A DNA stretch of 62,901 bases, counting the filler, from Craspedostauros australis (lineage: Eukaryota): the NCBI GenBank assembly GCA_030167865.1. It is 9 parts of 9 records of this genome, joined end to end, with 100 filler letters (N's around TTAATTAATTAA, not from the genome) between each part and the next. Parts side by side here need not be neighbours in the genome. Positions count along the whole stretch, not along the records: positions 1 to 4,026 come from JALAGF010003823.1; 8 more parts are not named here. One strand, given 5' to 3'. The position numbers and the translations under genes are program-made. Shown here piece by piece: positions 1 through 45,763 of this stretch (position 1 is the first letter of the stretch; each line of letters opens with the position of its first letter). The notes below the pieces were generated by a model. The model made no database searches. It worked only from the letters and a program-made list of their open reading frames with translations, and had not been told where the DNA came from.

Positions 1-223
1 AAACGTCACGTTTGCCATGCCGCAGTTGCAGATGGCGATGTGTACATGCCTTAGCCAAGCAAGCAAAGGCGCGGTGTTGCGACAGGAGTGTACTTCGAGT
101 AGTGTACCAAATGTAGAGTTGAATACAGTGGAGTGGAGGAGAGTCAGGTCTGGCAATGTGTCCGGTGAATGTATAATAAAATAGAATATTCCACTCCACA
201 GTCCACATCCCATGTTCTCAAGG

Positions 224-1188
224 CTACAATTCGACATGCTTGGGGGAGGCTTGAGATTGCTGTGTTGAAGTTTCGGTGGAAGTTGTAGCTTGATCTTCGC
301 TGCCGCTCTCACTTGCCATTGGAACCTCCTTGGCGTTGTAAACTGGAGACGACAGCGCGTGTTGGGACAAGAAGCTGTGGAGCTTCCGCTTTGTGAATTC
401 TGCGCCGTCGTAGCGGACAAAAGCATCGTTGTTGTTGACAAGATCCACAAGTTCGCCCGGTGGGATCACAATCAACAGCGGCAGCCCATCTTTGGACGAT
501 TGTGAGATGCCGAACTGTTTCATGATCTCTTGGTTGTTCTTCGTTGGTGGCACTTCCGCAATTAGGATGCGACGACGGAACTCGGTTGAAAGAAACTTCG
601 TCATGGGCGCCGTCCGTGGGTGAACAGGATGGCCAGTGGCAAACCGAACTTCTTCGCCTTGGCAATGGCCTTGTCCAGGTCGGACTGACCAAATGTGATG
701 CGCTGGCTGTAGTTCGTCATCTCATTCTCGATGAACTGCTTCATGTCTTTTGCCTTGCGCTCGAAGTTGTAGTCCACAACGGTCTTGTCCGAGTTGCTCT
801 CAGGCTTGCGCTGCTTCTTCTTGGGCTTGAAGAGACGGATGGTGGGCGTTCCCTGGATTTCCCCCAACAAACGCGGTGGAGGACGGCTGCGGTTCCCCTC
901 CGTGTCCCAATAGGCGATCTTGACGATCCCCTTGGCAGCCTTTGCCAGCTGTTCCCACTCAGGAGTGAGACGCTGGCAGTATCCTCATCCTTGTCGACAG
1001 ATGTTCACAAACACCGCATGGGGTGACTCGACCACCTCCTTTCTCCAGTTTTCATGCGTCAATGCGACCACGTTGGACGAGAACGGATTTCCAGCGCTGA
1101 CAGATGTGACAGCAAGTAGGGCCCCAAGGGTCCAGGCTGTTGCTTTGCGCGCCCACAACAGAGCCGGTCGGTTACTGTGGGCCACCAT
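224..1188 (-). CDS. ER protein disulfide isomerase/thioredoxin-family protein, probable selenoprotein (UGYC active site, Sec at codon 68); -1 frame break near 604-621
   Basis: Signal peptide (..WTLGALLAVTSVSA-G). Thioredoxin fold reads VVALTHENWRKEVVESPHAVFVNICRQG-TGA(987-985)-GYCQRLTPEWEQLAKAAKGIVKIAYWD...GTPTIRLF in one frame to 601. The C-terminal part (TKFLSTEFRRRILIAEV...KHVEL, HDEL-like ER retrieval signal) is in the -1 frame, 604-224. Joins track ORFs 985..1188, 601..870 and 224..604. Confidence 0.85.
943..978 (-). promoter_or_regulatory. Stem-loop starting 6 nt 3' of the in-frame UGA (candidate Sec redefinition element)
   Basis: mRNA: UGA GGAUAC UGCCAGC-GU-CUCACU-CCUG-AGUGGG-AACA-GCUGGCA. 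Perfect 7-bp outer stem plus about 8 further pairs, with two single-A bulges and a 4-nt loop. Confidence 0.55.
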
Positions 1189-2947
1189 GGTGGATTTTCA
1201 GTGTCTTTTGCTGCTCTATCCGAATGTGCAGCTTACGTTTTATGCTGATGCTGTTTTGCGAGCTGCGAGTACAATTGTGCGCCTTCGCGAATCGTCGAAA
1301 AGGGGCTCGTTGCAAAGTGCTTGTGACGACTTCGCCATTTGTCGCAGATCTTTGCTTTTTGTTGCTGATGGATTTGGGGGTTGCGGCGGATTATATTTAG
1401 CGAATATTATCTCACGACGACGTCGCGTTGCATGTCACACGACATGTCTCTACTTTTAGTCATGTATAGCATCAGAACCTGATCGAAGAATCTCATGGTC
1501 GTCCTTCATACATCACACTGTGGCTCAACAGGGACTCCATCGCCGTCAATCATGCGGGCGTCGCTGTTGAGTTGTGTTGGTATGAAGCAGACGCGAGCAC
1601 AAGTACAAGTACAAGTCTGAATGCGCTCTCGTGATGGTCACACACGTTGTCACTTTCACACGAATACCAGCAACTAAATCTTGTACAACGGCTGCCCCCG
1701 CACACTCCTGTACCCACGAATTTCACAAGGATTTGTCTCTATGTAGGTCCTAGCTTGCCGCCTCCAAGATCGGCAGATCTCCGAGACGATACCTGTAGGT
1801 TCCGCCTTGGATGTCGGAATGCCGGTGGATTGCTGACCAGTCTCCAACGTCGTGTATGTGATGCGCAATCGGCACAAAACGGCGCAACGCACTGCATACC
1901 GCACATGCCCATGTACACAAACGTGGATGAGATGGCAGCAAGAAATAGTTGGCGATGTTGAAGTCGGAGTGGGCAGGAATGTTGATGCCTTCGTTGATTT
2001 TTGTCAACAGTTCGCTTTCGACTCAAAAATGTGAAGCAACTTGCGTTCATCGAAATCGTCCATGTTCATCTGTTGCTTGCGTTTTGGTGATCAAGTCGTG
2101 AGCGATAGTCCAAGGAACATTCCACAGAGTTCATTCCTTGATTTCTTGTTCCAACTGGCATTCTCGTCGCTTTCAATTGCGCTCTTTTCGAACCAGGCAC
2201 ACCGCTTGGGAGAAGACGGCAACGATGGCGATAGCAACGACGAAGGCGGTAGCCCTGGAGATATCATGCATTCGCTACCTCAATCCATGCACGGCCAGAT
2301 CGTTGCAAATCTGCGCACCTCTCCATGATCCTTCTCATGTGATCTTTTGAGAAGGGAAGAGAGACCATCTGAGTCCCTCGATCATGGATTGTGGATCGTG
2401 CTGGAACCAGGAGGCGGATGGAAGATCCATCTCGGGATCATGGAGTCTTGCTGAGTGAGAAAGACCTGTCCAGAGATCAAACATGAAAACAACCGAATGT
2501 GTACGGGCCTGCGTCGTGCGTCGTGCGTCGTGCGTCGTGCATCACAGTTGTGCCAAACCTAATCGTCATGCTCAACGCAAGTATTACACTTGCCATCAAA
2601 CCCACGAGCACTCGTGCTCGTGCTCATTCATGCTCACACTCGTAGTCGTACTATGTCTGAAGAGAGGATCATCACATTCGGATCTCACAAAAACGCCCAA
2701 GCTCCAAAGTTGAACACAGACCCCAAAAAACAAAGCCAACTGCGATACCGTTCCACCAAGAGATCTATCATATCCATAGTGATTTCATTGCAAAATACTT
2801 CGGACAAACAAACTCACCAACAGAAAGAAAACAAACAAGTATCACATTACATCAAATACACTACACAGCACTACACTGCACTATACAATTTCTAAACAAC
2901 GTGGTTGAACATCCAACTCCAGGAGACAACCAAGACGTTCCACTATC

Positions 2948-4026
2948 ATGATCCAAGGTATCGAAGTCGAGGCTGATCCTCCCGTCGTTTCCAACGAAGA
3001 AATGCCTTACGAAGAGGATGACGACAACAGCAACAAGAACAAGAACGACGACAACAACAACAACGAGAAGATCTGGCAACGTGTGGCACGACGAGTCGCT
3101 CGCAATCCGCGAAGGTACCTTCTCGGGGCTCTCGCCACTTCTCTGGTGCTCTCCGTCGTTGGCATGGTCGCCGGCGAGTTCAGCGTCGGCGCTGACACTG
3201 GTGGATGGCAATCGCGTGGAACCACGATCGCTGATCGCACTGCGCAAGTGCTGCTCGTCGAGATGAACCGAGAGTACATCTACAACGAAGGAGAGGCGGC
3301 ATGGAGCGATCTCATCAACAATGTCCAGCCAGGATATGATGGTGACGACAGCGACGATGACAGTAACGACAACAGCAAGAGGACCAACACCGGAGATGAC
3401 AATAACCGTCGACTGGCATCATCCTTTGGCTCAACTCCGATTTCATCCTTCCTCTCGCAGGCTTCCACCAGCGTTGGTAGCAACGCTCTCAGACATGGCA
3501 ACCACCGCACTCGCACGATGCCCTTCACCATGACAAGCGAGCTTCGCCGTCGCCTCGAGGAGAAAAGCCATCTCATGCCAGGCTGCGACTTCGGATGGTA
3601 CAATTCGGAATCGATGACCAACTCATCCCGCCTCTGGCCCATCTGGGAGGTCAAGAGCTCCAAGTCAGCCCTTGATGCAGATATCATCTACGAACTTTGC
3701 GTCGCTGAGGAGGACACCCAGCGCATTTTGGAGGAGAAAGGCCACTGCTTTGGATGCGATGAAGGATGTCTCCCACCCTTGTCCATCGTGCTCTACGCCC
3801 GACTCGCCTTGACCTCCGACGACGGTCTGTCCATGTCCTGCGCAGCCCTTCGAGATGCATGGGGGCCATACGAGGCCAAGACGAAGCAAGAATGGATCAC
3901 CTGCGTCACCGACTTCGATACCGACTACGACCCAGAAACCAAGACCATCCCCGCATCTTGCCCTGACCATTTCTCCTCCGCCATGGTGAACTTCGACTAC
4001 GACGAGACTGGCGTGGTGTCTTACAC
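2948..4026 (+). CDS. Dispatched/Patched-like (RND/SSD) membrane protein, 3'-truncated by the contig end
   Basis: Open frame to the spacer. N-terminal TM (RRYLLGALATSLVLSVVGMVAG), GWQSRGTTIADR motif and a Cys-rich luminal loop (ELCVAEEDT..CFGCDEGCLPP). The SSD itself is not reached. Confidence 0.55.
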
Positions 4027-4126
4027 NNNNNNNNNNNNNNNNNNNNNNNNNNNNNNNNNNNNNNNNNNNNTTAATTAATTAANNNNNNNNNNNNNNNNNN
4101 NNNNNNNNNNNNNNNNNNNNNNNNNN
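4027..4126. other. Artificial contig spacer N44-TTAATTAATTAA-N44; same spacer at 16822-16921, 28902-29001, 33299-33398, 37762-37861, 47300-47399, 52218-52317, 57136-57235
   Basis: Identical 100-nt linker with stops in all six frames, repeated eight times. Confidence 0.99.
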
Positions 4127-39397: not shown

Positions 39398-40092
39398 AGC
39401 CATCATAGTTTTGTGGGTGTCACTGTATCACTGTACCAGTGCATGACCGTGAGCGGGGTTTGTGGAAGGTGAGAATGAGATGGAGGAGGCAGATGATGCG
39501 GAGAAGGGCGCGAACACCACTACTCCATTCCAAAAGTACGTTTACGTACGGACAACACCATACAGATCGAGATTTGGAGGAGGAGAACGAATGGCACCAG
39601 GCACCATGACGAAGCAGGAGAAGTTCGGAAGGGTGCAAGTTGGGGACGAGGTGGGGTGGCATTCGAAGAGTATCGGGACCAACACCAGCAACAGTACAAG
39701 CACACGACGATGAGGATACCCCAAAGAAGGATGCTATCGTCCAATCGTATTCTGCTCTCTAGTTATTTGCTCTCACACAACAGCCGAGTATGAAATCAAA
39801 TGGTGATGCCGATTCAGCAATGATGAGAGTTGTGTTGTAATGTGGAGCGGCATGGTCGCAGTACCAAAATGGTGATGAATGTATGTGTGTGGGTGGATGT
39901 AGAGCGATGGCGCAGAATAGTACGAGCTATTGTACAACCTACGAAAGTATAATATGTACATACAGTATGCATGGCATACATAGTGCACCCAAATGTGTTG
40001 GCGAGATCGTGAAGCTGATCGAGTTGGCGAGCAAAAGGTTAGGTTCCAACAGAGCTGCGGGTGTTGTGGATGTGTAGCGGAACAAAAGGACA

Positions 40093-40166
40093 AGCTTCAT
40101 CGCGGATTCGAACCACGGACCTCCTCATTACTAATGAGGTGCTCTAACCAACTGAGCTAATGGAGC
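40093..40166 (-). tRNA. tRNA-Thr (anticodon AGT)
   Basis: Reverse complement of the 44981-45054 cloverleaf, followed by TTTT. Confidence 0.93.
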
Positions 40167-40560
40167 TGTTGCCGCAATTACTGTTGCTGCCATCCTAGGC
40201 CAATCCACTGTACAAATACTATAATACAAGCATGTACTCATGTGTCGCATCATTTTGGTCTCATCTCACCAGTCGATCCGCTTCCTGTCCTTCCGACTGT
40301 TCACCTTTTCATAACCGTGTAGATCGTACTCATACAACACAACCTTCTGAATCTTCTGTGTTGCGTGTGATCCTTCTCAGTTATGCTTCTGCTCTAATGT
40401 GTATTTATGTTCCGGAATGTGTTCCGGAATGTACTGTACATAGAAATGTGTTGTTCCTCCAGCCCAAACAACTGCTCGCTACCGCCTCCAGAAAGTCCAT
40501 CGTATCACTGCTGATGCGATCCATTCAGCATGACGCGTCTCGGTGCCTTGCGATGATGAC

Positions 40561-44586: not shown

Positions 44587-44980
44587 GTCATCATCGCAAG
44601 GCACCGAGACGCGCCATGCCGAATGGATCGCATCAGCGGTGATACGATGGACTTTCTGGAGGCGTTATCGAACAGTTCTTTGGGCTGGAGGAACAACACA
44701 TTTCTATGTACGGTACATTCCGGAACACATTCCGGAACATAAATACACATTAGAGCAGAAGCATAAATGAGCAGGATCACACGCAACACAGAAGATTCAG
44801 ACGGTTGTGTTGTATGAGTACGATCTACACGGTCATGAAAAGGTGAACAGCGGGAAGGACAGGAAGCAGATCGACTGGTGAGATGAGACCAAAATGGTTC
44901 AACATATGAGGAACTGTTTGCATTAGCTAGTTTGTACAATAGATTGGCCAAGATCGGCAGCAACAGCAATGATGGCAACA

Positions 44981-45054
44981 GCTCCATTAGCTCAGTTGGT
45001 TAGAGCACCTCATTAGTAATGAGGAGGTCCGTGGTTCGAATCCGCGATGAAGCT
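44981..45054 (+). tRNA. tRNA-Thr (anticodon AGT)
   Basis: GCTCCAT TA GCTC AGTTGGTTA GAGC A CCTCA TT-AGT-AA TGAGG AGGTC CGTGG TTCGAAT CCGCG ATGAAGC T. A and B boxes intact; T5 Pol III terminator at 45059-45063. Confidence 0.95.
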
Positions 45055-45763
45055 TGTCTTTTTGTTTCGCTACACATCCACAACACCTACGACTCTGTTG
45101 GAACCAAACCTTTTGCTCACCAACTCGATCAGCTTCACAACGTCACCAACACATTTGGGTGCACTATGTATGCCACGCATACTACTGTATGTACATATTA
45201 TACTTTCGTGGGTTGTACATAGCTCGTACTATGCTGCGCCATCGCTCTACATCTACCTACACACATACACACATACATACATTCATCACCATTTTGGTAC
45301 TGCGACCATTCCGCTCCACATTCCAACACAACTCTCATCATTGCTGGATCGGCACCACCATTTGATTTCATACTCGGCTGTTGTGTGAGAGCAAATAACT
45401 AGAGAGCAGAATACGATTGGACGATAGCATCCTTCTTTGGGGTATCCTCATCGTCGTGTGCTTGTACTGTTGCTGGTGTTGGTCCCGATACTCTTCGAAT
45501 GCCACCCCACCTCGTCCCCAACTTGCACCCTTCCGAACTTCTCCTGCTTCGTCATGGTGCCTGGTGCCATTCGTTCTCCTCCTCCAAATCTCGATCTGTA
45601 TGGTGTTGTCCGTACGTAAACGTACTTTTGGAATGGAGTAGTGGTGTTCGCGCCCTTCTCCGCATCATCTGCCTCCTCCATCTCATTCTCACCTTCCACA
45701 AACCCCGCTCACGGTCATGCACTGGTACAGTGATACAGTGACACCCACAAAACTATGATGGCT

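Follow-up and report, generated by a model that had tools for sequence, protein, structure and literature searches.

A conserved stem-loop directly downstream of the selenocysteine UGA codon in a PDI-like selenoprotein gene of Craspedostauros australis and its relatives, a plausible redefinition element

The coding sequences (CDSs) of SELENON and SELENOT carry a stem-loop that begins fewer than 10 nt 3' of the UGA decoded as selenocysteine (Sec) and that was described as stimulating read-through and Sec insertion (PMC1440920, PMC8704476, PMC2248747), and the SELENON element was reported to inhibit termination and to stimulate Sec incorporation (PMC4561486, PMC2248747, PMC8704476). Stable stem-loops also occur at the UGA of all UGA-containing eukaryotic SPS genes, where they were read as recoding helpers that may descend from the bacterial Sec insertion sequence (SECIS) (PMC4561486). 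The eukaryotic choice between Sec insertion and termination at UGA is only partly understood, and work on accessory hairpins beside this codon has dealt with only a handful of mRNAs, most of them from vertebrates. Here we analyze a hairpin that follows an in-frame UGA in a gene for a selenoprotein that resembles protein disulfide isomerase (PDI), on the minus strand of a 62,901-nt stretch of DNA (the window) from Craspedostauros australis (assembly GCA_030167865.1; 9 parts joined by 100-letter fillers, with positions 1 to 4,026 from JALAGF010003823.1). We consider that it is a conserved functional stem-loop within the CDS and most likely an accessory element resembling the Sec redefinition element (SRE), with a probability of roughly 0.65.

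PDI-like selenoproteins have been described in algae: EhSEP2 of Emiliania huxleyi has one thioredoxin domain with a U-G-H-C site, Thalassiosira pseudonana has two PDI selenoproteins, and the algal subfamilies are designated PDI_a to PDI_e (PMC6254913, PMC2375036, PMC7539508). The first reading frame of the window gene encodes a signal-peptide-like N-terminus with a hydrophobic leader, followed by a thioredoxin domain at residues 40-135 (E 1.1e-14 to Pfam PF00085) whose top matches in the PDB are TXNDC5 and PDIA6. With TGA read as U, the peptide is ...AVFVNICRQG-U-GYCQRLTPEWEQLAKA..., and the CGHC-type site reads CRQG-U-GYC. The Sec residue, U68, aligns with the first Cys of the CGHC motif of PDIA6, and the downstream CQRLTPEW is identical in both proteins. 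The C-terminus of the protein family is of the HVEL/KVEL type. The predicted product is a single-thioredoxin-domain PDI-like selenoprotein of the endoplasmic reticulum (ER) type, PDI-A6/P5-like and of the EhSEP2 kind, combining a thioredoxin fold with Sec in place of the first Cys of CxxC as in EhSEP2 and the algal PDIs.

A preliminary description of the window had reported the hairpin, and its coordinates and pairs proved exact on the minus strand (UGA 987-985, spacer 984-979, stem-loop 978-943, 15 bp). RNAfold gave a minimum free energy (MFE) of -20.9 kcal/mol for 978-943, with 15 bp, adding U970-A952 and G971-C951 to the pairs already noted. The CDS therefore holds a stem-loop that is separated from the Sec UGA by a 6-nt spacer, inside the limit of about 10 nt for SRE-type hairpins. 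The SRE of SELENON starts about 6 nt 3' of its UGA. Dinucleotide shuffles of the same segment had a mean of -16.4 (sd 2.9; z -1.57), and 13 of 200 folded equally well. When codons were resampled synonymously 200 times, the z-score was -1.85 and the share of equally stable resamples was 0.05; the 7-bp outer stem arose in 7.6% of synonymous resamples. Judged from the window sequence alone, the hairpin exceeds chance only marginally. It is the comparison with orthologues, rather than the window sequence by itself, that places it beyond chance.

A protein search returned 145 relatives at E <= 1e-5, the named ones being diatoms (Nitzschia inconspicua, and Coscinodiscus and Nitzschia entries of MMETSP), and an alignment of 38 sequences was used for residues at the Sec position and for C-termini. 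This position was Cys in seven proteins (P0010, P0011, P0013, P0014, P0016, P0018 and P0020) and Trp, with TGA translated as W, in P0003-P0009, P0012, P0015, P0017, P0019 and P0021-P0023; many other protein entries of the family begin downstream of the Sec codon. The Trp-reading and late-start entries are a systematic mis-annotation of a selenoprotein, which matters for annotation since it affects many database entries of the family. From metagenome and metatranscriptome contigs we took the best 80 of 125 relatives, mostly transcript-like contigs of about 1-1.7 kb with 48-69% protein identity. An in-frame TGA occupied the same codon in 79 of these 80 loci; 78 fit the active-site pattern with TGA, one further locus (L079) also had TGA, and one (L073) had CAA (CRNNQEEC). 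No Cys-codon form was found among the best 80 of 125 metagenome relatives, and no relatives were found in scans of genome contigs and viral contigs. Three data sets were used below: alignment A3 (the window and 78 loci, without L073 and L079; 72 distinct rows; gapless from -6 to +60), a non-redundant set of 70 sequences with less than 95% nucleotide identity, and a FastTree LG tree of these 70 built from protein without codons -3 to +17.

In A3, the outer helix was paired in 93.3% of cells and the inner helix in 69.9%; the whole structure was 82.5% paired, compared with 29.6-46.2% when the 3' partners were slid by 1-3 columns. Among the 70 non-redundant sequences, the outer stem was intact (7/7 pairs) in 52, against 6.4 expected from synonymous resampling, which bears out the prediction that the stem would be conserved among TGA-bearing orthologues. 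The mean pairing probability of the outer stem was above 0.5 in 60 of 70 in a 126-nt context. When codons +1 to +18 (counted from the Sec codon) were resampled synonymously, the mean z at the hairpin was -3.0 and 55 of 71 sequences fell below -2; a repeat gave -3.19, with 57 of 70 below -2; in contrast, the mean z at six control positions of the same CDSs lay between -0.33 and +0.06. The proposed folding comparison with synonymous controls thus came out marginal for the window and clear for its orthologues.

Compensatory changes were also observed. Pair 21-46 of A3, which joins the third base of Gln to the first base of Leu, was GC in 51 rows, AU in 14, GU in 2 and other in 5; in the 63 sequences whose codon +4 encodes Gln, the combination was G/C in 45, A/U in 13, A/C in 3 and G/U in 2. 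The A-U state required 5 Fitch changes on the tree and was scattered over L065 (whose neighbor L067 is a G.U intermediate), L019 and two clades, one with six members and one with five; L041 was another G.U intermediate. For the structure first described, 19 cells of A3 were changed on both sides versus 6.6 ± 2.0 in shuffles, and 0 of 500 shuffles reached 19. In many orthologues, namely those whose Cys-Gln is followed by Leu-Leu, the helix is continuous over 13 bp and uses a different register, in which 80.7% of cells were paired; six of its pairs had double changes (a number reached by 20 of 500 shuffles), and 30 cells were changed on both sides versus 8.8 in shuffles (0 of 500 reached 30). 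Pairing also appears to steer amino-acid replacement near the active site, since Lys at +12 was replaced by Arg (CGG) only where its pairing partner at +5 was CAG: CGG occurred in 6 of 70 sequences, with 3 Fitch changes and always with CAG, which itself was present in 12 of 70.

A similar picture emerged from synonymous variation, which was scanned over 276 well-occupied codon columns of the 70 non-redundant sequences by comparing codon differences at identical amino acids with the gene-wide rate of each pair (observed/expected, O/E). The lowest 5-codon windows in the whole CDS were +2 to +6 (0.57) and +9 to +13 (0.64), and the lowest 13-codon window was +2 to +14 (0.69), whereas the loop codons +7 to +9 showed no synonymous constraint (0.97-1.06) and the third position of the spacer Gly was also unconstrained (1.02). 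Codon choice in the arms fits what pairing would predict: Cys +3 was UGC in 65 of 70 sequences (49% background), Leu +6 was CUC in 50 of 69 (20%), Lys +12 was AAG in 51 of 53 (55%) and Leu +13 was G-ending in 63 of 70 (45%). In the spacer, Tyr was UAC in 60 of 70 orthologues versus a background of 51%.

These data bear on the possibility that the hairpin is only a by-product of the conserved motif CQxL..EWEKLA and of codon bias, with no RNA function. Such a by-product would allow the marginal z-scores of the window itself, and the peptide motif is indeed kept even in human PDIA6 (CGHCQRLTPEW). However, the excess of intact stems and the low z-scores were obtained with amino acids held fixed, and the same amino acids were unconstrained elsewhere: O/E was 0.29 for Cys +3 versus 1.11 for Cys -4, and 0.20 for Lys +12 versus 1.05 for Lys +18. 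The repeated G-C/A-U swaps also speak against it. We regard this explanation as very unlikely and close to refuted. The hairpin is a real, selected mRNA stem-loop, and the comparison across orthologues settles it. For the element proposed in the preliminary description, an SRE-like hairpin about 6 nt 3' of the UGA, conservation, compensatory change and constraint confined to the arms were all recovered; its effect on recoding would follow by analogy.

Several observations weigh against an SRE-like role or limit its support. First, the hairpin is missing from about 10 of the 70 orthologues with UGA. These include the clade L026/L039/L050, which carries CAA with CUU/CUC and GCC and in which the stem is broken or weak, as well as L074, L076, L079, L075 and L013 (z -1.7 to +1.1). 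Because some UGA-bearing clades are without it, the hairpin is not required for the Sec codon and would be a helper rather than a requirement. Second, the covariation check gave a mixed outcome: double changes in A3 exceeded shuffles as described above, but RNAalifold missed the stem when given every row, returning a trivial 2-bp structure (4 bp in the local run). The 7-bp outer stem and inner pairs (-11.1 kcal/mol) appeared with 61 of 71 rows, only after 10 divergent rows had been dropped (L026, L039, L050, L071, L074, L075, L076, L078, L079 and L080). These ten rows and L013 are UGA-bearing orthologues with a broken or weak stem, part of the distant CRAT-U-GYC clade among them. Third, the window hairpin is among the weaker members of the family. 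Fourth, the window copy of the gene is frameshifted: an uninterrupted frame to the ER-retrieval-type C-terminus was not found in it, owing to a 7-nt deletion at 619/618.

The remaining observation of this type comes from L073, which has no UGA and yet keeps the stem (outer stem 7/7, z -2.9; 2.6% of resamples intact). It could be argued from this locus, and from the clades that lost the stem and kept the UGA, that the selected mRNA structure has a role independent of the UGA, either as a translational pause about 70 codons into the CDS, when the signal peptide emerges (ER targeting or folding), or as a binding or stability element. The hydrophobic leader and the HVEL/KVEL-type C-terminus would agree with a tie to ER targeting. 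L073 has lost both Sec and CxxC (CRNNQEEC; L073:327-386), and no SECIS was found in it by the model R1 described below (E <= 0.01), but it descends from the L027/L042 lineage: where it shares the amino acid with its closest relatives that have Sec, only 25-27% of codons differ, and seven unchanged codons are expected with a probability of about 0.73^7 = 0.11. Since L073 is a recent derivative, its retention of the stem carries little weight for either view. Besides, the fixed position of the stem 6 nt past the UGA matches described redefinition hairpins, and no comparable constraint was seen elsewhere in the CDS. We therefore consider a UGA-independent role unlikely, while giving it some credence, and we infer the tie of the hairpin to the UGA from these comparisons.

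If the hairpin is an SRE-like element, its action might be pictured as follows. Recoding stimulators generally lie about 5-9 nt downstream. With the UGA in the A site, the leading edge of the ribosome would be entering or unwinding the GC-rich base of the helix 6 nt past the codon. Unwinding of the outer stem could slow or alter decoding and disfavor termination by release factors, and Sec-tRNA(Sec), delivered via the SECIS machinery of the 3' untranslated region (3'UTR), would thereby gain more chance at the UGA. Because the loop varies freely, a steric or kinetic role would be expected rather than a site for a sequence-specific protein.

SECIS elements were then considered, as the preliminary description had suggested that the hairpin might be the main signal for want of an evident 3'UTR SECIS. 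Rfam models detected no SECIS in window positions 1-3000 (E <= 10) or in 20 orthologue contigs (E <= 1). However, orthologue 3'UTRs share AUGACGGUC(U/C)...(A/G)GACC(U/C)GA, and a strict core (ATGA, a single base and a block of four, with the reverse complement of that block within 25-135 nt, followed by one base and GA) was present in 51 of 79 orthologue 3'UTRs compared with 4 of 79 reverse complements. A covariance model, R1, built from 26 orthologue SECIS elements matched 49 of 80 loci (E <= 0.01), 23 of them outside the training set, and every match lay past the stop codon, in the coding orientation. The cores begin 42-243 nt past the stop. Since the orthologue elements are clear by both motif and R1, the blank Rfam result reflects a problem of sensitivity. 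In the 223 nt of 3'UTR within the window, no strict core was found even when NTGN was allowed, and R1 with filters off reached at best 1.2 bits over window 1-1300. The 3'UTR is cut after 223 nt by the window edge, and this is why no SECIS is evident in the window; it is not evidence of absence. A public contig, 95-99% identical, extends 492 nt past the edge, and the SECIS of the window gene may lie beyond it.

These results leave little room for the idea that the hairpin itself is the Sec insertion signal, whether a bacterial-type element in the CDS or a relocated eukaryotic SECIS, replacing that of the 3'UTR. In-CDS SECIS elements can function in eukaryotes (PMC1802603), and the 223 nt available did not contain a SECIS, but the window 3'UTR is simply cut short and orthologues carry canonical 3'UTR elements. 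At 978-943 there was no kink-turn SECIS (Rfam SECIS_1 type), that is, no AUGA...GA core and no Rfam match at E <= 10. Conserved apical-loop nucleotides, as in bacterial SECIS, were not found either: the O/E of the loop was about 1 and the register of the inner helix differed between orthologues. We consider it extremely unlikely that the hairpin is an insertion signal, and neither the main-signal nor the bacterial-type proposal was upheld.

Some features of the window 3'UTR resemble SECIS. AUGUGGACU (208-199) and AGACCUGA (151-144) on the minus strand are similar to the two sides of the orthologue core, with the essential A of AUGA missing and an imperfect helix. A degenerate SECIS at about 208-144 was tried on this basis and rejected, since it had no AUGA and a nil model score; moreover, two differences of the contig of run X1 (see below) fall in the supposed helix and are uncompensated there. 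The likeness may be due to chance or to a decayed element. The same contig has changes at 201 and 200 that convert C-G plus U.U to U.G plus G.U, by which the pairing of the long-range 3'UTR stem is kept (Table 1). In addition, GUGACG at 9-4 (minus strand) resembles the AUGACG with which orthologue SECIS elements begin; it runs into the window edge and might be the first part of a SECIS severed there.

Table 1. Features of the PDI-like selenoprotein locus, with positions counted along the window.
Feature	Position	Strand	Basis
First reading frame, PDI-like selenoprotein gene	601..1188	-	ATG 1188-1186 to premature TGA 603-601; translation
In-frame UGA read as Sec (U68)	985..987	-	First Cys of CxxC (U-G-Y-C)
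Spacer GGAUAC between UGA and stem (Gly-Tyr codons)	979..984	-	Sequence
Outer stem, 5' arm UGCCAGC (Cys-Gln-R codons)	972..978	-	MFE fold, orthologue pairing
Inner stem, 5' side (G971, U970, CUCACU 969-964)	964..971	-	MFE fold
Apical loop CCUG	960..963	-	MFE fold
Inner stem, 3' side (AGUGGG 959-954; A953 unpaired; A952 and C951 paired)	951..959	-	MFE fold
Outer stem, 3' arm GCUGGCA (..G-Leu-Ala codons)	943..949	-	MFE fold, orthologue pairing
Second reading frame, rest of protein from ~617	224..721	-	Open reading frame and alignment to orthologue C-termini; stop TAG 226-224
7-nt deletion site, frameshift	618..619	-	Versus 95-99% identical public contig and protein P0026
3'UTR within the window	1..223	-	Cut by window edge
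Long-range 3'UTR stem, 201-190 with 137-126, 10-12 bp	126..201	-	In MFE and centroid folds

The frameshift of the window copy shortens the protein by about 125 residues at the C-terminus, so that the HVEL end is lost. The peptide of the second frame, from about 617, is TKFLSTEFRRR...HVEL, and P0026, a protein 97% identical, reads LFTSKPRTAPMTKFL where the window reads LFTHGRRP and then a stop. A 2481-nt contig of run X1 spans window 1-1300 and has 7 extra letters behind 618 that restore the frame; it differs from window 1-1300 by 13 substitutions. As none of these falls in 597-1300, the hairpin is identical in this contig. The deletion in the window copy could represent a defective allele, a pseudogene or an assembly error.

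Other features were noted in the window. A tandem simple repeat of the CACGACG type lies upstream of the gene (about 2516-2550, minus strand). A 389-aa open reading frame (2909-4078, plus strand) ends in a run of N (X in translation, about 4030-4078), which we read as an assembly gap in the neighboring gene. Two tRNA-Thr(AGU) genes, at 40092-40167 (minus strand) and 44980-45055 (plus strand), have equal Rfam scores and are inverted, with about 4.8 kb between them.

The hairpin is a strongly supported example of a UGA-adjacent structure in an abundant algal selenoprotein family, and its roughly 70 diverged variants, which include natural stem-less "mutants", provide a comparative data set. On balance we lean slightly towards a wider view, in which UGA-proximal redefinition hairpins extend beyond vertebrates and SPS and have been kept through deep divergence in a PDI of diatom-like algae, with pairing that steers amino-acid replacement, and in which such a hairpin could adjust how often Sec is inserted relative to termination, for example according to selenium supply. 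If this is true, transformable diatoms would offer a tractable unicellular system for the study of SRE action.

With regard to the protein, the window gene resembles EhSEP2 and the algal PDIs in having one thioredoxin domain with Sec first in CxxC, the site being U-G-Y-C here and U-G-H-C in EhSEP2. The papers on EhSEP2 and algal PDIs describe proteins and SECIS elements; a word search of the main texts of PMC2375036 and PMC7539508, supplements aside, gave no mention of a UGA-proximal structure, and the literature searched, again supplements aside, did not yield a report of a hairpin of this type for any PDI selenoprotein of algae. With regard to the RNA, viral read-through stimulators are also extended structures a few nt 3' of a UGA and were found via enhanced synonymous-site conservation (PMC3159437), but they promote read-through by near-cognate tRNAs and not Sec insertion. 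Bacterial SECIS elements share with the algal hairpin a place in the CDS directly after the UGA and a combination of coding and pairing constraint (PMC1802603, PMC8704476). However, for SelB they need a bulged U and a conserved apical loop in which a G and a U are unpaired (PMC8704476), whereas the apical part of the algal hairpin is not conserved, the host is a eukaryote and orthologue 3'UTRs contain kink-turn SECIS elements.

Further parallels are found among eukaryotic accessory structures. Like the algal hairpin, the stem-loops of SPS2 and SPS1-UGA genes stand at a UGA-Sec and are proposed recoding helpers. The HRE of hymenopteran SPS is a larger structure of three stems that overlaps the UGA and functions with no SECIS (PMC4561486); in contrast, the algal hairpin lies entirely 3' of the UGA, and SECIS elements are present in its orthologues. 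Stem-loops beside UGA-Sec are thus already a described class (PMC4561486, PMC1440920, PMC8704476), and the initial view of this locus as an undescribed mechanism had to be given up. The elements of SELENON and SELENOT differ from the algal hairpin in that the latter belongs to a PDI-like family of diatom-like algae and has no sequence relationship to them; moreover, the loop and spacer sequences of SELENON matter (PMC8704476), whereas the loop of the algal hairpin varies freely. What they have in common is a start within the CDS at a distance of under 10 nt 3' of the UGA, conserved pairing and a co-occurring 3'UTR SECIS, seen here in the orthologues. By this comparison, the algal hairpin is a well-supported RNA structure and plausibly an SRE, rather than a new mechanism of Sec insertion.

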